From Negativicutes bacterium (GTDB lineage Bacteria > Bacillota > Negativicutes > UBA1444), in assembly GCA_963665275.2 (NCBI GenBank), contig CAXXIN010000003.1, positions 64,001 to 128,000 on the forward strand: DNA of 64,000 nt. Direction: 5' to 3'. This document shows positions 1,687 to 23,671 of the stretch, in pieces. Under the pieces are notes generated by a model, which saw only the letters and a program-made list of their open reading frames with translations, ran no database searches and was not told where the DNA came from. How positions within the stretch are numbered: the first letter of the stretch is position 1; every line of letters starts with the position of its first letter. The position numbers and the translations under genes are program-made.

Positions 1687-2269
1687 AAATACGACTCCTC
1701 TTTTTTACAGACTCCATTTTTACTACTTCTCTGTTAAAATTATTAAACCTTCATTAGTTGGTTACGTACTCCATTCCCAAATTATTCACACCAGCTGAGC
1801 CAAGCGAGCAAATATTACGGAATTATCTCACAGACCAAGGCTTCCTGGATGACAAAACAGCCTCTCATTCTCCTGAAAATTTTCTTATTCAGTTTTCTTG
1901 TTGTGCCCAACTGCCCCAATTTAATCTGGAAACACATAGGGCTTCCGCTGCAATTGCCGCCTCTGCAATGTCTTTCTCAGAAAAGGGGCAGTCCCGAATA
2001 TTATCTCAGCTTGGCATTTGCGCCCGCTCGGTTTAATTTGATAAAAAATCAGCGTTGGTTATGTTATCGGTGATCCGGTTAAGGCAGTGATAGAGAAATT
2101 ACTAACACCTGTGACGAGTTGCTGGATGAACTTGCGCTTAATTGACAGGCTCAAGTCAATTCGCTAGTATTGATGCATGGCTAAAGAATCATTTCACGAT
2201 CGCCATTTGGATCGCCAAACTTAAATGCGTTATCATTAATCACCCACAGAAAGGGTTGAAATCTTTAGT

Positions 2270-2920
2270 ATGATTAGTAATGAATCATATGGACCCTGTC
2301 CGAATACTCCCCACCCGATGCCAGGGCATCCTCGAGTATGTTACATAAAAAATGTCGTCAAAAACCCTAACATCATAATTGGTGACTATACCTATTATGA
2401 TGATCCGCAAAATCCCGAAGGATTTGAAAAAAACGTCTTGTATCACTACGATTTCATTGGAGACAAACTAATCATCGGGAAATTTTGTGCCATAGCCGCT
2501 GGCGTCAACTTTATCATGAACGGCGCCAATCATAAAATGGAGGCTTTGACAACATATCCATTTGGTATATTTGGCTCAGGATGGGAAGCAGGGCGACCTG
2601 CGTTGACCAACCTACCAATCAAAGGAGATACAGTAATCGGCAACGATTTTTGGCTTGGTTATGAATCAGTTGTGATACCAGGTGTCAGAATTGGCGATGG
2701 AGCAATTATCGCTGCAAAATCGATTGTAACAAAAGATGTGCCCCCATACACAATTGTTGGTGGCAATCCTGCCAAGATCATCAAACAAAGATTTGACGAT
2801 CAAGTTGTAGCAAAGTGATTAGCTGTAAAATGGTGGGATTGGTCTGTCGAAAAAATTACTCACAATATACCTTTCTTGGCTAGCAATGACATTGAACAAC
2901 TTATAAAAATGAAAGAATAG
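2270..2920 (+). pseudogene. vat: Vat/CatB-family xenobiotic acetyltransferase, copy 1, premature stop at 2816-2818
   Basis: Near-identical to 13610-14260; codon TTA(Leu) in copy 2 is TGA here and homology continues to TAG 2920. Confidence 0.8.
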
Positions 2921-3010
2921 GTTGACCAAACAATCAAAATAATCCCCCAATAGCAAAGGGCTCCTCGGACGAAAATCTGAAAAGCCTTTTACCTTCTATG
3001 CATATGGGCA

Positions 3011-3145
3011 TTATTTCAACAAAGATTCAGCCAAATTCATTTTATAAATCGATAAAGCTCAAACTTGGATTATCGGCATCATTGGAATTAACGCGAATAA
3101 GCATTTCATATTACCCTTCCCTCGTAATATTTTCTCAATGCATTG
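3011..3145 (-). pseudogene. Collapsed relic of the linear amide C-N hydrolase gene (start region fused to 3' end)
   Basis: 3095-3145 matches the RBS/start region at 15398-15450 (GGGAAGGGTAATATGAA.TG.TTATTC); 3011-3082 matches 14351-14481 with a deletion at ATTCAGC microhomology. Confidence 0.7.
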
Positions 3146-4096: not shown

Positions 4097-4196
4097 CACC
4101 CAGACTGGCACTCGCTCACCAAACTGATCACCAACACCCCAAAAACTCTATCATCCAACACAAAAAGCTTCCGACCACGAGTGGCTGGAAGCTTTT
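4097..4196. repeat. Junction repeat: paired TCACCAA arm-like sites (4112-4134) + palindrome A (4163-4196)
   Basis: Aligns over ~85 bp with 17333-17416, which abuts the selC 3' duplicate; cacccagactggcact is identical to 13520-13535. Confidence 0.8.
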
Positions 4197-9077: not shown

Positions 9078-10955
9078 ATCGAGTAGGAGGGGGCGGCGAG
9101 CCCCCGACCTCTCACACCACCGGACATGCGGGTCCGCATCCGGCGGTTCCCAAGGATTGACGAAGTTTTCCATAGTGTGCAAGCAAACTCAACAGCCCTT
9201 GACGTTCCCAATAGGTAACGTCGAGGGCATTATTTGTGTTGCGGGCCATGGCCCAGGGTCCCTTGCTGGATTTGGCCATCATCCACGCCGCCCACTCCGG
9301 TACGCCCAGCGCCCGGAGGTTTCGGAAACGTGTCCACGCCCTCTTCCATTGTTTCCAGAGGCACATGCGCAGTCGCCGCCGTAACCATTGGTCCAGTTCC
9401 CCGCAATGCTTCTTGGCCGATGCCACATGGAAATATCCAATCCAGCCCCGCAGATACTGGTTAACCTGCCGGATTCTTTCTTCCATCGCCACGGACCATG
9501 TTCGGTTCGTGAGTTGTCGGATTCTCTCCTTGCAACGCTCCAGCGTCTTTGGCGCTAACCGGATGGTTCCCGCTTTGTCGTTCAAGAAACTAAAGCCAAG
9601 AAACTTTCGCTTCCACGGTCGGTCTACTGCACTCTTCTCCCGGTTTACCTTGAGTTTGAGCTTGCCTTCCACAAACCGGACCACCGATTCCATCACCCGA
9701 ACTCCTGCCCGCCTGCTTCGCACGAACAAGTTGCAGTCGTCCGCGTAGCGGACGAACCGATGCCCGCGCCGCGCCAGTTCCCGGTCCAAGTCATCGAGCA
9801 GAATGTTCGACAATAGCGGACTCAACGGACCGCCCTGCGGCGTTCCCTCTGTTGTCCTACTTACTACGCCACATTCCATGACTCCGGCGCTTAAGTAACT
9901 GCGGATGAGTTTCAGAACTCGTTTGTCTCCCACTCTTCGCGCCACCCGCGCCATCAACATGTCGTGGTTGACCCGGTCGAAGAATTTCTCTAGGTCCATG
10001 TCCACGACAAACCGATAGCCTTCCCGGATGTGTTCCTGCGCCCGCCGGATTGCGTCATGCGACCGTTTCCCCGGCCGGAAGCCGTAGCTTTCCGGGCTGA
10101 AGTAAGGATCGAATATCTGGGTCAGTGTCTGCAGAAGGGCCTGCTGGATCAGGCGATCCAATACGGTTGGGATACCCAGCGCCCGCGTCCCGCCTCCGGG
10201 TTTTGGAATGTCCACCCGTTTCACGGGTTGCGGCCGGTAAGTTCCCGTTCGGAGCTGTTCTTTAGTTGTTTCCCAGTTGGTCTGGAGATATCCCGCCAGT
10301 GTGGCGGTATCCATCCCGTCGACGCCGGGAGCTCCTCCGTTTTGTTTCACCCGCTGGTAGGCGCGTTTCATGTTTTCCCGCTCCAGCGTTTTCTCCAGCA
10401 GTTCACCAGGGTCTTCGCGAGAGGGCAGGTCCACTTGTGCCGGTGATGGGCTCAGCGCTCCGGCATACTTTTGCGGCTTCACCGCTACTTTTTGCCGTAA
10501 GCCTTCTTCTGAAGTTGGCTGCTGTAATTGCTCATCACGCGAACGCATAGTTTCCCTCTCTTTCTTTGGGTTCGGCCCTTCCGGCGCGGCGTCCCGCTCT
10601 CCGTACTATGGCCTCGGCTGACTCCTGCGATTTCAGCGCCGCCTCACGGCGGCGGTTGCCGACTCAGTCGGCGTGACCGCAGGCCTCCCCGGATAAGAAC
10701 GTCATCTTTCCACTCATGCACCTGCCCAAGTTTACTGCTTCAGCCCTTGGCGGCTTCGGACTTCGTCTTCTCGTGCAGACTCGTCCGGCTGAAACAGCCT
10801 CAAATTGGGTTCGTATACCTCAGGTCGAGCATTTGCCTCCAGCTTCCTTCAGATTCCGTCTCGCGACGGACACCCTTGCTCTTGGCTAACGGTAGGCGCT
10901 CGCCAGCCCCCGCTCGGGACTTTCACCCTATAGACGACGCCCATGCCGGGCGTAC
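9078..10955 (-). mobile_element. Group II intron, bacterial class C (IIC)
   Basis: 5' GTACGCCCGGCATGGGCG; DV GAACCGCCGGATGCGGACCCGCATGTCCGGTGGTGTG (CGC triad); 3' ...CCTACTCGAT; inserted just after a stem-loop and T-tract. Confidence 0.93.
9112..10548 (-). CDS. ltrA: Group II intron reverse transcriptase/maturase (no endonuclease domain)
   Basis: GAPGVDG, GFRPG, DLEKFFD, GTPQGGPLSPLL, RYADD, thumb RGWIGYF. Confidence 0.95.
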   Translation of the reverse strand: MRSRDEQLQQPTSEEGLRQKVAVKPQKYAGALSPSPAQVDLPSREDPGELLEKTLERENMKRAYQRVKQNGGAPGVDGMDTATLAGYLQTNWETTKEQLRTGTYRPQPVKRVDIPKPGGGTRALGIPTVLDRLIQQALLQTLTQIFDPYFSPESYGFRPGKRSHDAIRRAQEHIREGYRFVVDMDLEKFFDRVNHDMLMARVARRVGDKRVLKLIRSYLSAGVMECGVVSRTTEGTPQGGPLSPLLSNILLDDLDRELARRGHRFVRYADDCNLFVRSRRAGVRVMESVVRFVEGKLKLKVNREKSAVDRPWKRKFLGFSFLNDKAGTIRLAPKTLERCKERIRQLTNRTWSVAMEERIRQVNQYLRGWIGYFHVASAKKHCGELDQWLRRRLRMCLWKQWKRAWTRFRNLRALGVPEWAAWMMAKSSKGPWAMARNTNNALDVTYWERQGLLSLLAHYGKLRQSLGTAGCGPACPVV

Positions 10956-12561: not shown

Positions 12562-13443
12562 ATGGATATAAAGCAGCTTAAATATTTTAGAGCCATTGTT
12601 GCAGAAGGCAATATTACCGGAGCAGCCACACGTTTATTTATGACGCAACCATCGCTAAGTCAACAACTGCATCTTCTTGAAAACGAGCTGGGTGTGAAGC
12701 TGGTTCAGAGAGGCAGCAGAAGGATTACCGTTACTGAAGCAGGTCGTTTATTAAATGACAGAGCTGGACAAATTTTAGACTTACTAAACGCCACCGCTTT
12801 GGAAGTAAAAGAGTTTCACGAAGGATATAAAGGCACATTGTCTATAGGAACAATTGCATCTTCCGGCGTGACACTATTGCCAAGCCTGATTCGGGACTAT
12901 CATCAACAATATCCTAATATCAATTTTCAATTATTGGAAGGTGATACCCCACGAATTTTGGATTTGTTGAAAAACGGTATAATTGAAATAGGCATTGTCC
13001 GAGCCGCTTTTGATGCAGAGCTTTATGATTGGGTGGACTTACCAACTGAACCAATGATTGCAGCCACTTCCCAAAAATGGAGTGGCGGAGATCACTCCCA
13101 ATATATTTCCATCAAGGATCTTGCAAACAAGCCATTACTGCTACATCGCAGCAATGAAACAATGATAATAGAATGCTGTCAGCGCGCTGGATTCCAACCC
13201 AACATTATCTGCAAGGGTGATGATGTCCGGTCTTTATTAGTTCTTGCCAATGAAGCGATTGGGCTTGCGATTGTGCCAAAATCCGCATTAGGTTTAGTCC
13301 CAGGCAATAATATAAAATATAGAGAGATTATTGATTCACCTTTAGAAATAAAGAAAGCAGCAGTCTGGTTGCGACAAAGATTCCTTTCCATTGCTGCAAA
13401 ACATTTTATTGATATGCTGCTATTACTCAAATCGAATTCTTAA
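12562..13443 (+). CDS. LysR family transcriptional regulator
   Basis: GNITGAATRLFMTQPSLSQQLHLLENELG HTH; divergent from TerB-like/AEC genes. Confidence 0.95.
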   Translation: MDIKQLKYFRAIVAEGNITGAATRLFMTQPSLSQQLHLLENELGVKLVQRGSRRITVTEAGRLLNDRAGQILDLLNATALEVKEFHEGYKGTLSIGTIASSGVTLLPSLIRDYHQQYPNINFQLLEGDTPRILDLLKNGIIEIGIVRAAFDAELYDWVDLPTEPMIAATSQKWSGGDHSQYISIKDLANKPLLLHRSNETMIIECCQRAGFQPNIICKGDDVRSLLVLANEAIGLAIVPKSALGLVPGNNIKYREIIDSPLEIKKAAVWLRQRFLSIAAKHFIDMLLLLKSNS

Positions 13444-13609
13444 ACAAAGAAAATGTCTACTCGTCCTTCCCCTGCCCCTTCCTCCCCAAATATCATCAGT
13501 AAATACCGTCATTTACCGGCACCCAGACTGGCACTTGATCACCAACCCAAGTCAAAACCTTCAATGCATTATTCACCAATCGTTCGCAGAAAGGATTGAG
13601 AAGTTTAGT

Positions 13610-14260
13610 ATGAGTAGTAATCAATCATATGGACCCTGTCCAAAGACTCCCCACCCGATGCCAGGGCATCCCCGAGTATGCTACATAAAGAATGTCGTCA
13701 AAAACCCTAATATCATAATTGGTGACTATACCTATTATGATGATCCGGAAAATCCCGAAGAATTCGAAAACAATGTCTTATACCACTACGACTTCATAGG
13801 CGACAAATTAATCATCGGAAAGTTTTGTGCCATAGCCACTGGTGTCAACTTCATTATGAACGGCGCCAATCACCAAATGGATGCTTTGACAACGTATCCA
13901 TTTGGTATATTTGGCTCAGGATGGGAAGTAGGACAACCTGCGTTGGCCGACCTACCAATCAAAGGGGATACAGTAATCGGCAACGATGTTTGGATTGGCT
14001 ACCAATCAGTTGTGATGCCCGGTGTCAAGATTGGCGACGGAGCAATTATCGCTGCAAAATCGATCGTAACAAAAGATGTTCCCCCATACACAATTGTTGG
14101 CGGCAATCCTGCCAAGTTCATCAAACAAAGGTTTGACGATCAAGTTGTTGCAAAGTTATTAGCTATCAAATGGTGGGATTGGTCTGTCGAAAAAATTACT
14201 CACAATATACCTTTCTTGGTTAGCAATGACATTGAACAACTTATGAAAATAGAAGAATAG
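13610..14260 (+). CDS. vat: Vat/CatB-family (streptogramin A-type) O-acetyltransferase, intact copy
   Basis: IIGDYTYYDD, IGKFCAIA, MNGANH, hexapeptide repeats, KWWDW; start after AAAGGA RBS, matching copy 1. Confidence 0.88.
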   Translation: MSSNQSYGPCPKTPHPMPGHPRVCYIKNVVKNPNIIIGDYTYYDDPENPEEFENNVLYHYDFIGDKLIIGKFCAIATGVNFIMNGANHQMDALTTYPFGIFGSGWEVGQPALADLPIKGDTVIGNDVWIGYQSVVMPGVKIGDGAIIAAKSIVTKDVPPYTIVGGNPAKFIKQRFDDQVVAKLLAIKWWDWSVEKITHNIPFLVSNDIEQLMKIEE

Positions 14261-14350
14261 GTTAAGCAAACAATCAAAATAATCCCCCAACACAAAAGGC
14301 TCCTCGGACGAAAATCCGAAGAGCCTTTTATCAACTATGCATATTGATTA

Positions 14351-15412
14351 CTATTTCAACAAATATTCAGCAGGACTATGAAATTCTCCTCCAGCCAGTT
14401 TCATCCGCACCACAGGAGCAGATTCAGCCAAATTCAATTTCTTTAAATCGATAGAGCGCAAACTCGGATTGTCTGCATCATAAAAATATATGACTTTGTT
14501 TTTGTGATCTCTTATGATCGTCCACAACGTGTAGTTATACGAACCCAAACCAGCGTATGCACTGGCTTCGACTCTTGCCTCCCCACGAACCACAGCCACC
14601 TTATTCATAATGGCGGTTGCGGTGGCAATCGCGGAGGGTAAACTCTGCGGTTCGTTCACGTATTTGTTAATCAAATACGCTTGCACGAAACGACGATCTT
14701 CATATATCACCACATCGTCATTAGACATCGCATTGGTATAATTGTTATATTTTTTCAAATTATTAATGTGCCAGTCATACGGGGGATCGTTTGTAACTAC
14801 TTTAATCGCGGAAATATCGTGGATTTTCATTTGACCATCGACAAATTCGATAACAATGCTCTCGCCGGTCTCGTCGCCGATGATTAAATGCTGCGGTGGA
14901 ATCATTTTGAGTTCTCCCGCATAATTGCCAGTAATGATTGTTTTTTGCAGCGCCTGTCGCAATTCAGCGATGTTAGAAAAATTCCCCAATACCCACTCAC
15001 TTGCGTATGTCAAAGGAATCACTTCACGGCTAGGATAACGTGCGGGCTCTGGATATTCTGCCCCTTCCATCCACTGCATCGCCACTGAGAGGCCCTTTTC
15101 ATTCAAACCATCACTAAAAACATCTCGTCCAAGCAGGTTAACGCCAACAAAACCATATTTTGTTTTCTTGTCGATTAAAATCCCTTCGGGATATTTCATC
15201 ATGGTCACGACGTGACCGGCAGGAACAACAACAATATCGGAATTCATCTCAATATCAAAATCCATATTGCGACCACTTACTACGTAGTTCCGCGAGTTTA
15301 GAAATACGCTTGTACAAGCTTCAGCCGGGAGCGCGGCGCCCCAGAAACTCAGAGTTAACGCAACCAGGCTATAAATGAAAAAATCCCGACGCTTGCTGAA
15401 TAAACAATTCAT
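14351..15412 (-). CDS. Linear amide C-N hydrolase (choloylglycine hydrolase/penicillin V acylase family), secreted
   Basis: Signal peptide then AEA-CTS (N-terminal nucleophile Cys), GRNMDF, DGLNEKGL, VTNDP. Confidence 0.9.
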   Translation of the reverse strand: MNCLFSKRRDFFIYSLVALTLSFWGAALPAEACTSVFLNSRNYVVSGRNMDFDIEMNSDIVVVPAGHVVTMMKYPEGILIDKKTKYGFVGVNLLGRDVFSDGLNEKGLSVAMQWMEGAEYPEPARYPSREVIPLTYASEWVLGNFSNIAELRQALQKTIITGNYAGELKMIPPQHLIIGDETGESIVIEFVDGQMKIHDISAIKVVTNDPPYDWHINNLKKYNNYTNAMSNDDVVIYEDRRFVQAYLINKYVNEPQSLPSAIATATAIMNKVAVVRGEARVEASAYAGLGSYNYTLWTIIRDHKNKVIYFYDADNPSLRSIDLKKLNLAESAPVVRMKLAGGEFHSPAEYLLK

Positions 15413-15452
15413 ATTACCCTTCCCCCGCAACATTGCCTCAATGCAGATTATT

Positions 15453-15926
15453 CTACTGGAGTACATTCCATTTTGTCTCAACAGCCTTTGTCACTTCGTT
15501 ATTATTGTCCTTTAGCATATTCCGCTGCGCGTTTAGTGACGTCACTAATAGCCCCTTATCCAGCATAGACGATAATTGATCTTGGTTCATTTGCAGCATC
15601 TGCTGTCGGGTGTATGTCATCAGTTGCTCTTTCGTTTCCTGCTTCGTCTGGGTTTTAAGAAAGCTTTGACCCATCGTCTTCACCTGCTCAGGAGTCATCA
15701 CCACCATCATTTTATCGATTGCCCTAATGTACATCATTAAAACCATCTGATCTTTAAGCGCCGTTATCGCATCTTTCTCATTCGTAATCATCTGTTCGCC
15801 TTTAATCAAATCATTCATTGTTTTCTCACCGCTTGTCATGACCGGAGCCGCCAATACTGTTCCCATACTTGTAACCACCATCAGGATAACAAGAACAACT
15901 GTGAATCGCTTTAACATAAGTAACAC
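15453..15926 (-). CDS. Secreted Met/Gln-rich hypothetical protein
   Basis: Signal peptide; upstream of and co-oriented with the hydrolase. Confidence 0.65.
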   Translation of the reverse strand: MLLMLKRFTVVLVILMVVTSMGTVLAAPVMTSGEKTMNDLIKGEQMITNEKDAITALKDQMVLMMYIRAIDKMMVVMTPEQVKTMGQSFLKTQTKQETKEQLMTYTRQQMLQMNQDQLSSMLDKGLLVTSLNAQRNMLKDNNNEVTKAVETKWNVLQ

Positions 15927-17332: not shown

Positions 17333-17416
17333 TCGCTCACCAAATCGATCGCCAAAAACCTTAAACTGCATCAACAAATACAAAAGGCTTTCAGCCACGA
17401 ATGGCTGGAAGCCCTT
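17333..17416. repeat. Junction repeat: paired TC(A/G)CCAA arm-like sites + palindrome A, abutting the selC 3' duplicate
   Basis: tcgctcaccaaatcgatcgccaaa...caaaaggctttcagccacgaatggctggaagccctt. Confidence 0.85.
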
Positions 17417-17426
17417 ATATTTATTA

Positions 17427-17492
17427 TGGCGGGAGCGTGTAGGAATCGAACCCACCCAGGACGGGGTCACCGCCCCACACACGGTTTTGAAG
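17427..17492 (-). repeat. att direct repeat: 3' 66 bp of tRNA-Sec
   Basis: Identical to 23574-23639; identity starts at the anticodon loop (CTTCAAA). Confidence 0.95.
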
Positions 17493-17636: not shown

Positions 17637-17670
17637 GCCGGGATCGAACCGGCGACCTCTTGAATGCCAT
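17637..17670 (-). other. tRNA-Ala(GGC) fragment (anticodon loop to T-arm), att relic
   Basis: ATGGCATTCAAGAGGTC-GCCGG-TTCGATC-CCGGC: GGC anticodon and perfect T stem-loop. Confidence 0.8.
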
Positions 17671-17683
17671 GAATGCAGCATTC

Positions 17684-18826
17684 TTATATATTGAATGGAG
17701 GCAAAACTGTGTGAAGGTTCATCTCATCTTCTAATAATTTCAATTCATAATCGACATAGTCACTTACTAACTTATGCGCTACAAACTGTTCAAACTTCTT
17801 TGGACCCACATACTTGCGTAGTCCTGGAGCTATTACATAGATTAGCCCTTCACCGCTGATTCCTTCCCAATATCTTGGCTCATTCGAAATCTCTATAACC
17901 GCATTTTGAACTTCATAAAAAGATGCATATAAAACTAACTTGTTACTTGTTCTGCGGATATGCAACAGATGTCCTCCTGGCCAAGTAAGAATACCTTTTA
18001 AATGCGAATCGGATATTTGAAAGAAGTTCGATCCATGAATCGGGATAGTTGCTCTGATTGCAGCATCTCTTGTCCACATTGCCTTTCTTAACATATTTGC
18101 AGAATTACTTGTTTCATATCCGCTCTTCAGAAGGATACTTCCAAGGCCCAAAGCAATTTTTGCCAAAAACCTATCACCGTAAGAAATACCTATTGCTGCC
18201 TCGACTTCATGGTGCTCCCCGAGCAAACTTATTAGATCCTGGTGAAGAGCGTTCAAACTATGAGGAATATCAGAAAAATCACCGCCCGGAGGAGTTGGTC
18301 CATTTCCTAAGAATAACTCGGATTTCCTAAATTGCTCCCGAAAAGATAATAATATTGTCGGGTGCCATTCAGGGTTATTTGAACGAACAAATATAAATGC
18401 AAACCCTCTGTCAATATTAATATTTCTCGCATATGTTGGTACTCCTACCATAGGAGTAGTATTAGGCTCCGCCGGATAAGGTTCATGGAAGTGATAAATC
18501 GTATCACCCGTTGGTCCGATCCACAATTCACAGATTTTCCCTTCGTAATCCATTTTTTTGATAATTCCCATATACGACAAAGGAAGGATGAGATTACTAT
18601 CGATATTCGCATATTTCATTATAGCGCTCGAACGATAATTCTGGTTCATCCAACTTTTTATAAAAGGACCATCAATATACGTACCGGCTAAATTATTGCA
18701 ACGTGTGCACACGTTCCTGATTGCAAATGGATTCTGTGGCGTAAGATTTCCACCTAGAGCCTGAGGAATTACATGTTCTTTAGAAAACAGTTCATTTTCC
18801 AATCCGCAATACAAACAAATTGACAT
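17684..18826 (-). CDS. HNH endonuclease domain protein
   Basis: CLYCG...SKEHVIPQALGG...NVCTRCNN at N-terminus. Confidence 0.85.
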   Translation of the reverse strand: MSICLYCGLENELFSKEHVIPQALGGNLTPQNPFAIRNVCTRCNNLAGTYIDGPFIKSWMNQNYRSSAIMKYANIDSNLILPLSYMGIIKKMDYEGKICELWIGPTGDTIYHFHEPYPAEPNTTPMVGVPTYARNINIDRGFAFIFVRSNNPEWHPTILLSFREQFRKSELFLGNGPTPPGGDFSDIPHSLNALHQDLISLLGEHHEVEAAIGISYGDRFLAKIALGLGSILLKSGYETSNSANMLRKAMWTRDAAIRATIPIHGSNFFQISDSHLKGILTWPGGHLLHIRRTSNKLVLYASFYEVQNAVIEISNEPRYWEGISGEGLIYVIAPGLRKYVGPKKFEQFVAHKLVSDYVDYELKLLEDEMNLHTVLPPFNI

Positions 18827-18889
18827 ATCAAACTCCTACGCAAGCTTCTTGCCTTACGGTCGCACTCAAGATCGTGATAAGCTTGCTTT

Positions 18890-20497
18890 TCAACCAGATA
18901 GATATTCGTATACTGCCGCCATTGCAGAATTATGCATCATTCGGGCGCGTTTTTCGCCGATTAAAGCTACCGTCTGCAGTTGATTCTCGGAAGCGTTAAT
19001 TACATCACCAATGGAGTTAAGGTGCAATTCTCGCAGCTTTCCCTTCAAAAACGGAGTCAAATCTAAAACATCAGCGGATGTTTCGAGCCTAGACCGAAGC
19101 ACTGCGTTCATGTCTGGATCATTAATTTCAGAAGCACTCAGTGGTAAATCAGAATAAGCACTATTGTTCATTCCATATTCAGACATACGTCGAGGATCGA
19201 GTCCTTTTGCAATGTCAAAGCCAGATGATGCGGCCGCTTTTTCGAGTGATATCAAGCATCCCAAATTGACAATATACCTAGTCCCTATCTCTGATCTTGT
19301 GGCTTTAATGCCTGTTCCATTTTCATTAACTATGCCAGTATAAGCAAGCAAACGAATCGCTTCATGCACTGATTGCGGAGCCTTTCTATGAATCCAGAAG
19401 AAGCAGGTGGTCTTTTTATCACTTGCTAAATATTCATTGTTTTTCTTCTGTAACTCAGGCAATATGTCTTCTTCAATGAATTTGCGCCCCCAATTTATTA
19501 ATTCTTCATGTCCGGTGTATTTCCCACCTAACGTAGAATGTTCACTCCAAATATCCGTTCGGAAATACTCACGGATAACCTCATTAACTTGTTGACTATT
19601 TATTTTTTGAGCTTTAGAAACAATTTTGATCAATATTCTCGGGTTTCCTGTTGACGCATAGGCTAATACCGCAAAATTCTTCCCGTTTTTCGCAATATTT
19701 GTAGCGAGGTTGCTATCAGCGCGTTTCATGATGATTTCTTTCATGTTCTCAATATAATTTGGTAATAGAACATTTCTATCAACAGATATCATTGTTGCAT
19801 CATGCGCCGGCTGGAAAACATCACCGTAGTAAGTAACTCCAGGGTAAACAGCTGCATTACATGTTATTCTCGGACCCCGCATGTCTCTAAATAGAGTAAA
19901 AAATTGTCGTTGTTGTTCAGGTATAAATATATGGGCTGCCTCGTCGATAAATAAAGCAAATCGTTTTATTTTTATCAAACCGCACATATCATCAATAGCG
20001 CATTTAAATTCTTCAATGGATGGAATGCTTGAAGTATCGATGTTGCTTGAAAAATTTTTCCACGAGTCTTCAAGCTTCTTTGTGATTTTCTCCATAGGCG
20101 TATCCCCTGAAATATCTCTTAGCCCTCCAGTTAAGACTGACGTAGTCGCACATGTGGGCAATATGATTCCTTGAATACTCAGACTCCTAACTATTTGAGA
20201 ACATATGCGAGCCAACATCCAATATTGAAAGCGTTTAGGATCTGAAGTCTGGATAAGCGAAGACTTAGTAAAGGTCAAATATACCGGAAATATCCTGTCT
20301 TGAGCAAAAGACGCTAATAATTCTGCTTCCGCGACGCGAAGCAAAAACGTTTTCCCTGCCCCTCGGCTCGCGATCAAAATGGTTGGATTAATCGACTTGA
20401 GTTGATTTACCAACAGTCTATCTTGTTCTGTTTCAACAAAATACTCCATTATTTCATCAAGGGTCAAATCTTCGGTCCTATATGACATATTGCTCAT
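18890..20497 (-). CDS. P-loop ATPase (ORC/CDC6/STAND-like) with C-terminal RNAP alpha-CTD-like HhH domain
   Basis: Walker A ASRGAGKT, Walker B LFIDE, STGNPR motif; C-terminus DVLDLT...SIGDV...SENQL...IGEK. Confidence 0.75.
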   Translation of the reverse strand: MSNMSYRTEDLTLDEIMEYFVETEQDRLLVNQLKSINPTILIASRGAGKTFLLRVAEAELLASFAQDRIFPVYLTFTKSSLIQTSDPKRFQYWMLARICSQIVRSLSIQGIILPTCATTSVLTGGLRDISGDTPMEKITKKLEDSWKNFSSNIDTSSIPSIEEFKCAIDDMCGLIKIKRFALFIDEAAHIFIPEQQRQFFTLFRDMRGPRITCNAAVYPGVTYYGDVFQPAHDATMISVDRNVLLPNYIENMKEIIMKRADSNLATNIAKNGKNFAVLAYASTGNPRILIKIVSKAQKINSQQVNEVIREYFRTDIWSEHSTLGGKYTGHEELINWGRKFIEEDILPELQKKNNEYLASDKKTTCFFWIHRKAPQSVHEAIRLLAYTGIVNENGTGIKATRSEIGTRYIVNLGCLISLEKAAASSGFDIAKGLDPRRMSEYGMNNSAYSDLPLSASEINDPDMNAVLRSRLETSADVLDLTPFLKGKLRELHLNSIGDVINASENQLQTVALIGEKRARMMHNSAMAAVYEYLSG

Positions 20498-20502
20498 TTT
20501 GT

Positions 20503-21225
20503 CTATCCTCCTATAGTCCCGCCGAATAATGCCCTTACCGGTGGTAGATGGTTTAACTCTCTACAGATAACATCTTGTATTTTCCCGAGTTTATCTTTTT
20601 CCATAAGAGACAAATAACGAACTGAATAAGCATAGAAAACAACAAGTGTTATACTTCTGACCTTATCATGCCATTCGTCAAAAATTTCTTGGGAAAAATT
20701 GGTCTCGCGCGGCAATTTATTTGAGGCAATATAATTTCCATGAATGTATTCCGAGCATTCTCGATAGATTTTTTCCGCTATTGGGCAAATACCTTTGGAT
20801 TCCGATTCTAATGATTCAAAAAATGCTCTGGCAAATTTTTTAGAAAATACACCATTATCCAAATCAATAATCTCTTTCCAGAAAATATCCCGTTGCTCCA
20901 CCATCCATGTGCGCAATTCGATTTCTCTTGCGGAAAACAATATGCCGGCAAGCGTTAGTTCTAAGAAAAATCGCAACCCAGTAAATGCATAACGATATTG
21001 ACCACAGCCTAGAGACAAAAGCGCATTGTAATATTCGTCTTGCGCTTGTTGAAATATCACTATTTCCGGTTTGTCCGACAAACAATCAATCAACCGTCCG
21101 TAATCAAGCAATACAAGAAATGATTTGTTCATTTTTAATAGATTTTCATCTGTAACAGATACTTGAATATTTTCTTTTGCTTTATCCATAAATATTTCAT
21201 AAATATCTTTACATTCTATTGTCAT
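20503..21225 (-). CDS. HEPN-like helical protein (putative RNase)
   Basis: GQYRYAFTGLRFFLE and YRECSEYIH (R-x6-H); GGAG RBS before ATG 21225 (ORF track starts at 21258). Confidence 0.65.
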   Translation of the reverse strand: MTIECKDIYEIFMDKAKENIQVSVTDENLLKMNKSFLVLLDYGRLIDCLSDKPEIVIFQQAQDEYYNALLSLGCGQYRYAFTGLRFFLELTLAGILFSAREIELRTWMVEQRDIFWKEIIDLDNGVFSKKFARAFFESLESESKGICPIAEKIYRECSEYIHGNYIASNKLPRETNFSQEIFDEWHDKVRSITLVVFYAYSVRYLSLMEKDKLGKIQDVICRELNHLPPVRALFGGTIGG

Positions 21226-21701
21226 AATTTCTCCAGATTTTCTATCATAGAATCTCATATTTCAGCCTCTCAACCCAACTCATTATGTAAGCTTGGCTTT
21301 CTTTCATGGAATGAAAATTCAACGTCACCGCTCTATTTCCTTTACCTGCCTATCAAAAGTTCTACCTTATGGCATGCTGATTTATTCTTTAACAAGAACA
21401 GTCTCTCTCCTCCACAAACCATTTTCCTCGTCATCGAACAAACATACTTCTTTCCCCAGAAGCTGGAACCAATACCGCATCCCCTCCGGTGCCCTACAGT
21501 GACGGTGTCATCCTCGCGTCCATCACCCGGTTGAGCTCCTACTGTTTGCCGCTGACCCACCACCAGGGCCAGCGGCTTTGTTTTTCCATCTGGATATTGG
21601 AGGGCAATGAATTGCTCTTTATACCATAGGGGCACCTTCAACATGCAAGTTGACCCATCCGTTACAACTCTTTTCCCAAACGCAACTTTAGGATACGTTA
21701 T

Positions 21702-22271
21702 CTATTCTCCAGCGTGCTTCAAAGGGATTATCCCCAATTTTACGCGATACTCTTTATCTTTATAGTCCTTCGCAACGAGCCAGACATCCTGCTCTATAAT
21801 GGGGAAATCATTTACATCCAAACAGCTCTCTAAGTCAAAATGATACATCGTTCTTGGCATAAAATTCAATACCTTGAGACTATCATAAAACATCACGGGC
21901 CCAACCTTCCGCCCCGTATCCAAGTCCTTTACATCGGCACGTTTTCTTCGATTATCTGTATTGTATTCAATTACAATATCGCGAAGGCTATTAGGTACCT
22001 CGGTACAGTTGAATACATCCAATGAAATTTTTATAGATCCGTGTGAAATATCATCGTCTAAATCAGCCGGTACCAACCCACCCATCTCATCTGACTTAAA
22101 ACACGGCATTTCAAAATTGGATACGTAAAAAACCAGGTCGCCGCGTTTCAAAAAACATTGGATAATTATGGCACCAAACGCTGCCGCTAAAGTGAAAAAT
22201 CCCGTTATAATATTGGGCCAGACATCTTTAGGTATCACAAGTTCTCCTTTATCGTCTCTTGACTGCAGCAT
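21702..22271 (-). CDS. Hypothetical protein with one N-terminal TM
   Basis: 189-aa ORF, IITGFFTLAAAFGAIII. Confidence 0.55.
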   Translation of the reverse strand: MLQSRDDKGELVIPKDVWPNIITGFFTLAAAFGAIIIQCFLKRGDLVFYVSNFEMPCFKSDEMGGLVPADLDDDISHGSIKISLDVFNCTEVPNSLRDIVIEYNTDNRRKRADVKDLDTGRKVGPVMFYDSLKVLNFMPRTMYHFDLESCLDVNDFPIIEQDVWLVAKDYKDKEYRVKLGIIPLKHAGE

Positions 22272-22359: not shown

Positions 22360-23226
22360 GCCAGTTTTCAATTGATTAATTGATCTAAAACAGGATATAT
22401 TTGTTTGAGGGGTTCATAAGAGATACTCTGCTTTCTATCTTCTACATCAAAGTTTATATTCTTAATAGTGGCGTTGTTTTTTTTGCCAATACATCTTGAG
22501 TCGCTCCTGATTCAATACTATCGTAAACACATTAATAGGAGGCTGATTACGATAATCCATCTCGAACACATTAATCCAAGAAGCAATATCAACAGGCCGT
22601 TTACCATCAATTGGACACATTTGAGGGACCTTGGGAACAATATCTATTGCATACTTTTTATTATGATGCTGAATGTAAATCACTACGCGACCAAAGTTCT
22701 CAGAATACCACTGTCTTAAATCATCAGTTGAATATCTTTCAAAATCATTTAGGCTTTGCCCTAATGAATAAATTATCCAGTTAATTATTGTAGATTTTCC
22801 AGTGCCTCTTGCACCAATTAAGCAATTCAAAGATCCGTTAAAACGCAAGTAGTACCAGATATTATCAGCCATCCCCATTGGCGAATCCCAAAACGCCATC
22901 CCCACTATATATGGATACTCTATTCCCTCTGGTTTGCCTTTTAATACTCGCAAATCAGGATCTCTCAGCGCATATTTCACTCCAAAGAAATCGGGCTTTG
23001 TCATCTTAAGCCATATGGTGTTCTTCCCAATTTTTTCAGGGCAATGCGCATCTGAATCATGAACAAAAGCCATCATATTCGTACGCTTATATGTTCCATT
23101 TTGAATTTCTTTGAATAACTCTTTTTCTTTCTCTGGATCCATCACTGCCAATGCCGAAACCTTATCATCTGTAATTATCCGTCGTATATCAGGTTTACTA
23201 AAAGCAGAGTTCCGCTTCTCTTTCAA
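22360..23226 (-). pseudogene. Fragment of PHP-phosphoesterase + ATPase protein (Ppl/TrlF-like)
   Basis: SDAH...IG...WLKMTKPDFFGVKYALRDPDLRV followed by FNGSLNCLIGARGTGKSTII; both ends missing. Confidence 0.7.
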
Positions 23227-23573: not shown

Positions 23574-23671
23574 TGGCGGGAGCGTGTAGGAATCGAACCC
23601 ACCCAGGACGGGGTCACCGCCCCACACACGGTTTTGAAGACCGGGGAGACCACCAGGCCCCATGCGCCCCC
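23574..23671 (-). tRNA. selC: tRNA-Sec (anticodon UCA)
   Basis: 98 nt; 8-nt acceptor, 6-bp D stem with 4-nt loop, CTTCAAA loop, long variable arm, GTTCGATTC, G73-CCA. Confidence 0.95.

Follow-up and report, generated by a model that had tools for sequence, protein, structure and literature searches.

The window analysed here is a stretch of 64,000 nucleotides (nt) from a Negativicutes bacterium (assembly GCA_963665275.2, contig CAXXIN010000003.1, positions 64,001 to 128,000 of the forward strand), and all positions given below are those within it. Between 17684 and 21258 it carries three intact genes, all on the minus strand, which are designated A, B and C in the order of their transcription. 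Gene A (20503..21225) encodes an all-helical protein of 240 amino acids (aa) from the HEPN superfamily, the putative ribonuclease (RNase) effector of the pair that it forms with gene B; gene B (18890..20497; Pfam PF24389) encodes a 535-aa AAA+ ATPase of the ORC/Cdc6-STAND clade; and gene C (17684..18826; Pfam HNH_5) encodes a 380-aa stand-alone HNH_5 nuclease, a neighbour of A and B. The gene models are those of the open reading frame (ORF) list, in which A and B are separated by 5 nt and B and C by 63 nt. An ATG at 21258 would extend A to 251 aa (21258..20503). The start at 21225, which is Met12 of this longer ORF and is preceded by GGAG at a distance of 7 nt, yields a 240-aa protein in keeping with the relatives, which are mostly 232–256 aa long; residues of A are numbered from this start. 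That A, B and C are real genes and not chance ORFs follows from their relatives, which amount to more than 1,500 full-length proteins for B, 774 clusters at 50% identity for A (E ≤ 0.001; 322 clusters at 1e-30) and 75 proteins for C. An earlier reading of the DNA from its letters and ORFs (the sequence-only reading) had described three co-oriented intact genes with gaps of 5 and 63 nt, which agrees with the ORF list, and all the motifs that it quoted were found: G-x-Y-x-x-A-x-x-x-L-R-x-x-L-E and Y-R-E-C-S-E-Y-I-H (R-x6-H) in A, ASRGAGKT, LFIDE and STGNPR in B, and an N-terminal HNH in C.

The unit that is conserved between genomes is the pair A-B. Relatives of the three window proteins were searched for with tblastn in 82 loci that contain a relative of B, 80 from genomes and 2 from plasmids. 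A relative of gene A lies directly upstream of B and on the same strand in 81 of these loci, and 81 of the 82 are also matched by a profile hidden Markov model (HMM) of A; the only locus without A (L076) ends 212 nt before B. A relative of gene C was found in none of the 82 loci, neither by tblastn nor by profile HMM. In the same way, none of 91 loci with a relative of C (34 from genomes and 57 from metagenomes) contains a relative of A or B (tblastn at 1e-2, profile HMMs at 0.01), where it should be noted that only 21 of the 57 metagenome loci extend at least 2.4 kb upstream of C. The ATG start of A could be placed in 64 loci, and in all but two of them the gap between A and B is −8 to +41 nt (62 loci), the exceptions being L050 (136 nt) and L079 (an artefact). 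An apparent fusion of A and B in L079 was rejected as the product of a script, an in-frame stop being present. Downstream of B no third gene recurs across the loci, apart from the synteny of two Chryseobacterium loci. The genes that follow B vary from locus to locus, are often on the opposite strand and encode, for example, MFS and ABC transporters, an aspartyl protease, a GNAT protein, a helicase or, in L072, a type I HsdR. From the adjacency of A to B and the mutual absence of C on the one side and A or B on the other, it is concluded that the conserved unit is a two-gene cassette without a DNase arm. The sequence-only reading had joined the three genes in one system, with a possible DNase beside the RNase, and had named the conservation of the gene neighbourhood as a check, and a lack of co-conservation as a ground for refutation. 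This check, made with tblastn and profiles, separates the three genes: A and B are co-conserved and the HNH gene lies outside the cassette, so that neither the three-gene system nor its DNase arm can be upheld.

The alignment of gene A comprises 57 relatives, which are 24–40% identical to the window copy. The AlphaFold2 model calculated from this alignment is all-helical and of high confidence (pLDDT 96.4, pTM 0.92), and the bundle in it is composed of helix 1 (residues 55–73), helix 2 (77–98), an insert (99–128), helix 3 (129–159) and helix 4 (179–207). In an exhaustive VIA-align search of 48,161 chains, HEPN proteins came out on top and make up 7 of the best 11 matches, with Z between 9.4 and 7.5: 2hsb (Z 9.4, 125 of 126 residues), 1ufb (8.8), the HEPN domain of sacsin (3o10, 8.7), Roquin (8.6 and 8.3), 4nqf (8.2), 1wol (7.6) and the HEPN part of AbiA (7.5). 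These proteins align to about residues 50–207 of the model. What makes the fold match convincing is where the conserved residues are located in the model. Invariant in the 57 relatives are R85, E89, S98, W107, D113, W116, Y154, S158, H162 and G163, and nearly invariant are R155 (at least 90%), E159 and N164, which gives the motif Y-R-E-C-S-E-x-V-H-G-N. R155 is at the end of the helix formed by residues 129–159 and H162 is in the loop behind it, so that R155-x6-H162 occupies the position of the HEPN catalytic motif; R85 and E89 are in helix 2. The HEPN survey describes both a conserved acidic residue in helix 2 and inserts between helices 2 and 3 (PMC3710099). The modelled fold is of the HEPN type, with an intact R-x6-H motif, as had been proposed from the sequence, and the protein would on this ground be expected to act as an RNase. 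With sequence methods the relationship is hardly detectable. Neither the sequence nor the profile of A found anything relevant among the PDB sequences, the PADLOC model CARF_HEPN matches one of the 57 members (3e-4), and in the protein atlas some of the clusters that neighbour gene A carry DUF6988 or DUF5677 on 12–22% of their members. The best 150 of the 774 clusters contain stand-alone proteins of 179–347 aa; longer or fused forms were not found by the search, which is weak evidence.

Gene B matches the Pfam family PF24389 (ORC-CDC6-like) with its residues 5–267 (1.4e-15, 57.6 bits versus a cut-off of 27). Its Walker A motif comprises A43–T50 with K49, its Walker B motif D185 and E186, and residues 284–287 are GNPR, which we take to be the sensor-2 motif. 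G46, G48, K49, D185, E186 and G284 N285 P286 R287 are invariant in the alignment of 20 relatives. A sequence search against PDB chains gave nothing useful for B. With the model, Foldseek gave 39 matches at E ≤ 0.001, led by the archaeal Cdc6/Orc1 in complex with origin DNA (2qby_A, 1.3e-5) and including ORC and Cdc6 subunits, Apaf-1, CED-4, plant and animal NLRs and the RADAR ATPase RdrA; the alignments extend over 430–500 columns (E 1.3e-5 to 1e-3) with TM values of 0.2–0.3. The proposal that B is an ORC/Cdc6-like P-loop ATPase is borne out by the Pfam match, these structural matches and the invariant Walker and GNPR residues. Past the lid, the predicted strands 366–369, 390–393 and 406–410 with their intervening helices fit a winged helix. 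The last 70 residues match the Pfam family HHH (helix-hairpin-helix) at 0.03, residues 455–522 give a weak profile match to the C-terminal domain of the RNA polymerase alpha subunit (E 0.2–0.8), and a relative of B from Enterobacter is named after this domain in one source. B is therefore an ATPase of the ORC/Cdc6-STAND clade that probably has two DNA-binding modules, a winged helix and a helix-hairpin-helix. Across the phyla the mean column identity is 72% for B versus 36% for A (alignments A1 and A2, loci L001–L080). That the ATPase is better conserved than its HEPN partner is the reverse of the usual pattern of sensor and effector.

A complex of A and B was predicted with scores of 0.66, 0.62 and 0.25 (median 0.62) versus 0.00 in all three controls, to be read against a mark that is reached by 116 of 157 solved complexes and by 2 of 215 mismatched pairs and that is approximate here, since the alignments were our own. 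The runs share at least 96% of their contacts, and the pLDDT of the partners is at least 85. In the predicted interface residues 257–272 of B contact residues 145–156, 184–194 and 226 of A. The stretch from B is the first helix of the lid, located directly before GNPR, and includes the invariant K258 and S262; the stretches from A are parts of helices 3 and 4 and flank Y154 and R155. The prediction supports a direct binding of A to B, in which the lid of the ATPase would be placed on the catalytic face of the HEPN protein. Such a contact between lid and catalytic helices, if it is formed as predicted, would provide a concrete and testable model for the gating of a separate nuclease by an AAA+ switch.

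The pair is widespread and scattered. At E ≤ 0.001 at least 1,541 proteins are related to B (word-index search, 8,000 candidates scored), of which the best 120 are 532–544 aa long, 53–63% identical and all assigned to PF24389; Cyanobacteria, Alcanivorax, Bryobacteraceae, Enterobacter, Serratia and Bacilli are among the sources that are named. Loci were searched for in the contigs of one genome per species (185,579 species) with alignment A1 as query, since a search with the single B protein gave no match. Of the 193 stretches that matched the pattern 166 encode a relative of B, and the best 80, with 44–58% identity, were kept. By their record titles these 80 span more than 10 bacterial phyla plus one Methanosarcina metagenome-assembled genome, the groups being Proteobacteria, Bacillota, Bacteroidota, Acidobacteriota, Cyanobacteria, Planctomycetota, Verrucomicrobiota, Nitrospira, Actinomycetota, Methylomirabilota and Myxococcota. 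The genome of the window itself has one copy of B, and none was found in 40 relatives of this genome, 11 of the same genus included. In phage records B was without a match, and in plasmids just 7 distant ones were found. Distant A-B pairs are present on a Planktothrix plasmid (L081) and a Clostridium butyricum plasmid (L082), with B being 41% and 37% identical, respectively; one plasmid pair is located between a gene of the PAPS reductase family and genes for a DEAD/DEAH helicase and an ATP-binding protein, and that in L082 directly follows a serine recombinase gene. Among 116 immediate neighbours scanned, 7 are of the restriction-modification, BREX, Abi or Druantia type, 7 are integrases or transposases and 2 are Fic proteins (16 of 116). 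In three unrelated genomes (L029, L042 and L045) genes for Y-family DNA polymerases (IMS) flank the pair, in L045 together with a SRAP peptidase gene, and in two other genomes UvrB and Mfd are found beside it; this could be due to chance or reflect a connection with DNA-damage loci.

The pair does not correspond to any system in the collections compared, as the sequence-only reading had supposed of the genes. In PADLOC 2.0 no model matches A, B or C at E ≤ 1, save for a chance-level match of A. In NCBIfam release 20, its anti-phage models included, nothing matches A, and the models that match B do so only below the cut-off, namely the Sll1717-family ATPase with 34 bits (cut-off 75) and DS41_1 (see below). 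A description of a two-gene pair of HEPN and PF24389 was not found in the literature searched, the supplements of bioRxiv preprints being outside this search, and a look for motif strings of B in the DefensePredictor supplements was negative, which is weak evidence because their text is incomplete. A-B is thus apparently an undescribed conserved two-gene module of the NTPase-gated HEPN kind.

Several published systems resemble the pair in part. The closest architecture found is HINPO, a comparative-genomics prediction that likewise combines HEPN with an ORC/CDC6 ATPase; in the proposal of its authors DNA is sensed by the ATPase, and the HEPN protein brings about cell death or dormancy (bioRxiv 10.64898/2026.10.19.760177). 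As described there, the central component of HINPO is a ParA whose nucleotidyltransferase domain is inactive; this ParA is either fused to the ATPase or encoded by a gene in between the other two. In contrast, A-B has no ParA: none is encoded in the A-B gaps of the B loci (5 nt in the window) and none is among the Pfam matches of B. The two are set apart by this gene architecture, the HEPN and ATPase families themselves having been compared by description only. DS-41 is a single Cdc6-like AAA+ protein of 502 aa, reported to be widely distributed and listed as validated anti-phage in Escherichia coli (PMC13092281). Like B it is of the Cdc6/Orc1 type, with 2QBY_A as its authors' best HHpred hit and a GxRGAGKS/T Walker A motif, and unlike A-B it is described as a single gene without a HEPN partner (PMC13092281). 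B is outside the DS-41 family, since the NCBIfam model DS41_1 (NF053860) matches only residues 14–107 with 23.6 bits, the equivalog cut-off being 370. The HEPN-DUF499 ATPases, which belong to systems related to type-1 BREX, and the N-terminal HEPN-STAND proteins (PMC3710099) also join a HEPN endoRNase to an NTPase of the same clade in what is proposed to be an NTP-switched effector. They are single polypeptides in larger systems, whereas A and B are separate proteins in a minimal cassette. DS-15 shares with A-B the combination of a small helical protein and a P-loop NTPase in a validated defence operon. It differs in that its NTPase is of the ParA/SIMIBI type and that it has three genes, for a ParA-like ATPase, a 132-aa protein and a DUF6988 protein (PMC13092281); by eye and unaligned, its protein as published there lacks the Arg of the R-x6-H motif. 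Finally, the PADLOC candidate PDC-S01 matches 17 of 20 relatives of B weakly (best E 2.7e-4); it is a single-gene candidate, the window's own B is without a match at E ≤ 0.01, and the similarity is marginal.

Taken together, A-B is probably a self-contained, mobile cassette in which an ATPase gates a HEPN protein that would act as an RNase, with gene C being separate. A role in conflict is indicated by the patchy horizontal distribution, by the island context in the window and by the defence- and mobile-type neighbours including HsdR. DS-41 offers a precedent for a Cdc6-like AAA+ protein in phage defence. The most likely role of A-B is abortive infection or addiction, and the idea of an ATPase-gated RNase that acts by abortive infection, put forward in the sequence-only reading, stays the best reading of what the pair may do. 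In the mechanism that we propose, B would hold A inactive by covering the HEPN catalytic face. A trigger, most plausibly invader DNA or an intermediate of replication or packaging, would bind to the winged-helix and helix-hairpin-helix domains of B; that it is probably DNA is suggested by the presence of these DNA-binding domains. Binding would alter the nucleotide state of B and drive its oligomerization, and this in turn would either free the A domains or bring two HEPN domains together in a composite RNase site. RNA cleavage by A would then arrest the cell, as in abortive infection. HEPN RNases are usually dimers that build a composite site (PMC13092281), and the same gating logic has been proposed for HEPN-STAND fusions (PMC3710099), for the HEPN-DUF499 ATPases and for the HINPO systems.

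A more specific version can be put forward only tentatively. A-B would be an undescribed minimal immune module, present across bacteria and in at least one archaeal genome, in which the conserved B, with its winged-helix and alpha-CTD-like domains, senses a structural feature of invading or replicating DNA instead of a fast-evolving phage protein and then, through nucleotide-dependent movement of its lid and oligomerization, releases or assembles A. This would be the HEPN-STAND logic in the form of two stand-alone proteins, with a HEPN family that is absent from Pfam. If A-B defends against phages, a compact and very widespread two-gene system would be added to the catalogue and a new HEPN family defined. 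The strong conservation of the ATPase next to a variable HEPN partner could point to the recognition of a generic nucleic-acid structure.

It should be noted, however, that not all results are in line with a gated HEPN cassette that serves in defence. Z values near 9 can, by the tool's own warning, be reached by helical bundles through their arrangement alone, which leaves the fold match of A on its own indecisive. The comparison with Foldseek, which the sequence-only reading had suggested as a check, was productive for B, with Cdc6/Orc1, STAND proteins and RdrA, and not for A, whose model found nothing in the PDB at E ≤ 0.001. The window copy of A is without any Pfam match, no Pfam HEPN family matches its relatives, and DUF5677 matches 5 of its 57 members only weakly (best 7e-4). 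The model of B is of moderate quality (pLDDT 69.6), and one of the three runs for the complex scored only 0.25. Many immediate neighbours of the pair are housekeeping genes (for ribosomal proteins, EF-Ts, PheT, PolA, UvrB and Mfd), and the link of A-B to defence islands is modest, the neighbour counts being raw counts to be read without a background rate. The conservation of B is unusual for a defence sensor and suits a conserved enzymatic or structural role better than that of a receptor in an arms race.

Among the alternatives the one that survives best, if still rather unlikely, is that A-B is an addiction module that stabilizes mobile elements or islands, with A being a HEPN toxin and B an ATP-dependent antitoxin or chaperone, and with no dedicated sensing of phages. 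Toxin-antitoxin pairs in which a HEPN protein is the toxin are known (PMC3710099). The small size of the cassette, with genes that almost touch, and its horizontally scattered occurrence would fit such a pair, as would the strong conservation of B and the serine recombinase next to the pair in L082. Also the predicted contact, which covers the helices beside the catalytic motif, is what would be expected of an inhibitor. However, a multi-domain, DNA-binding AAA+ protein of 535 aa is large for an antitoxin, many copies are located amid housekeeping genes with no mobile element in sight, and the related Cdc6-like DS-41 protects against phages (PMC13092281). Roles of A-B in addiction and in phage defence are not mutually exclusive.

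Very unlikely is a function outside of conflict, in which B would serve as an ORC/Cdc6-type factor in the replication or segregation of an integrated element, with an accessory role for A, or the pair would take part in cellular RNA processing. B is structurally nearest to the archaeal Cdc6/Orc1 initiators and is very strongly conserved, and the neighbours of the pair are often housekeeping or DNA-repair genes, including the Y-family polymerase genes in three of the loci. This is at odds with the patchy distribution (0 of 40 relatives of the window genome, and 166 confirmed matches in the collection of 185,579 species), with the lack of replication, partition or integration genes that recur beside the pair, and with the conserved R-x6-H motif, which points to a nuclease effector.

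Gene C matches the Pfam family HNH_5 with residues 4–59 (8.5e-12, 45.3 bits versus a cut-off of 27.5). In an alignment of 25 relatives C4, C7, H18, C40, C43 and N44 are invariant, which corresponds to the catalytic His and the zinc-binding Cys pairs of an HNH protein. Match and residues confirm what had been read from the sequence. Many invariant residues are also present in the conserved C-terminal part of about 320 aa, and the 75 relatives, which are about 380–390 aa long, align from end to end. The sequence of C found nothing useful among PDB chains, the profile matches the HNH endonuclease 4h9d weakly (0.0041), and for residues 62–380 the protein atlas gave scores of at most 0.79, which is a lead only. 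Elsewhere the neighbours of gene C are varied, with no constant partner, and are often of the kinds found in defence and mobile elements: SNF2-PLD helicases, a PLD nuclease, an AAA_15 ATPase, Mrr, STAND NTPases, a deaminase, Fic, TniQ and integrases. At one of 34 loci a gene for a 438-aa DUF5677 protein (L112:7216-8532) is located 43 nt downstream of the relative of C on the same strand; the profile of A does not match this protein, although DUF5677 weakly matches some relatives of A. In view of the varied neighbours and the absence of A and B from its loci, C appears to be an HNH nuclease gene that stands alone and belongs to variable islands, and the annotation is corrected to this effect; its place beside A-B in the window is best explained by accretion in one island.

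The pairing of an ATPase with an HNH nuclease follows a known logic, as in Septu, and would speak for A, B and C being one system in which the ATPase gates both the RNase (A) and a DNase (C). For the Septu proteins PtuA and PtuB themselves there was no PADLOC match of B or C at E ≤ 1, and the PtuA matches in the PADLOC scan of the window belong to a Ppl-like fragment described below, and not to B. The three-gene system, for which also the co-orientation, the 63-nt gap between B and C without a terminator-like site and the occurrence of the relatives nearest to B (63% identity) and to C (85%) on short metagenome contigs of uninspected context can be cited, is the least probable of the alternatives and as a conserved unit largely refuted, since C is absent from all B loci and A and B from all C loci (with the limited upstream reach of the metagenome loci), the genes after B and around C vary by locus, and an AGGAG located 8 nt ahead of its ATG provides C with a separate ribosome-binding site.

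The genes are part of an island at a tRNA gene. The selenocysteine tRNA gene (tRNA-SeC, 23574..23671, minus strand; found by ARAGORN and with 63.8 bits by the Rfam model tRNA-Sec) is the integration site. Its 3′ 66 nt (23574-23639) form the proximal copy of a direct repeat (family D5), of which the distal copy (17427..17492), with 100% identity, marks the far boundary of the island. The 6.1-kb segment flanked by these perfect 66-nt repeats resembles the outcome of a site-specific integration. Within the island the GC content is 0.37–0.41 versus 0.51–0.58 past tRNA-SeC. A 254-aa ORF (22462..23226, minus strand) is the remnant of another defence gene, that of a Ppl/Spaf_1101/TrlF-like ATPase. 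It matches the PADLOC Ppl model with 8.5e-18 over about positions 189–309 of 894 and the NCBIfam Spaf_1101 ATPase model over positions 220–406 of 836 with 118 bits (cut-off 475), and because it covers only about a fifth of these models it is considered a fragment. Given tRNA-SeC, the 66-nt repeat, the low GC content and this fragment, the sequence-only reading fairly described the surroundings as a decayed tRNA island with a Ppl-like remnant beside the genes. Between gene A and the fragment there is an intact 189-aa ORF (21702-22271, minus strand) with a hydrophobic N-terminal stretch, which matches phrog_23349 (2.3e-12), a group of unknown function. A 62-aa ORF that adjoins the tRNA gene has the appearance of the end of a tyrosine recombinase, for which Pfam gives no confirmation.

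Directly past the stop codon of gene C there is a stretch of 32 nt (17639-17670) that recurs unchanged at three further places of this genome; at the two of them that were read onward, the sequence runs into a tRNA- or tmRNA-like 3′ end (...CCTCCACCA). With a single mismatch, a 21-nt core of the tRNA-like stretch after the stop of gene C is also found at three other genome places. ARAGORN found a tRNA neither at the two of the three repeat places that were scanned nor at 17639-17670 of the window. Possibly the 32-nt stretch is a scar left at a second integration site; if so, this would be a hint that the island grew by accretion.

A hairpin-forming repeat of 48 nt is present in five copies (at 4158, 5824, 10956, 16111 and 17378) with the core GGCTTCC..CCA....TGGCTGGAAGC; the copy at 17378-17425 has a terminator-like score and abuts the distal tRNA-SeC repeat. 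Elsewhere in the window, an ORF on the minus strand (9112-10548) encodes a group II intron reverse transcriptase/maturase (RVT_1 1.6e-39, GIIM 6.1e-22) and is located in a GC-rich patch (0.57–0.59) within the otherwise low-GC region of 1–23 kb. A block is duplicated between 2233-3142 and 13573-15445 with 80–95% identity (repeat families D1, D6, D9, D15 and D16); it takes in genes for hexapeptide-repeat acetyltransferases (2270-2818 and 13391-14260) and extends towards a gene for a choloylglycine hydrolase (14351-15481).

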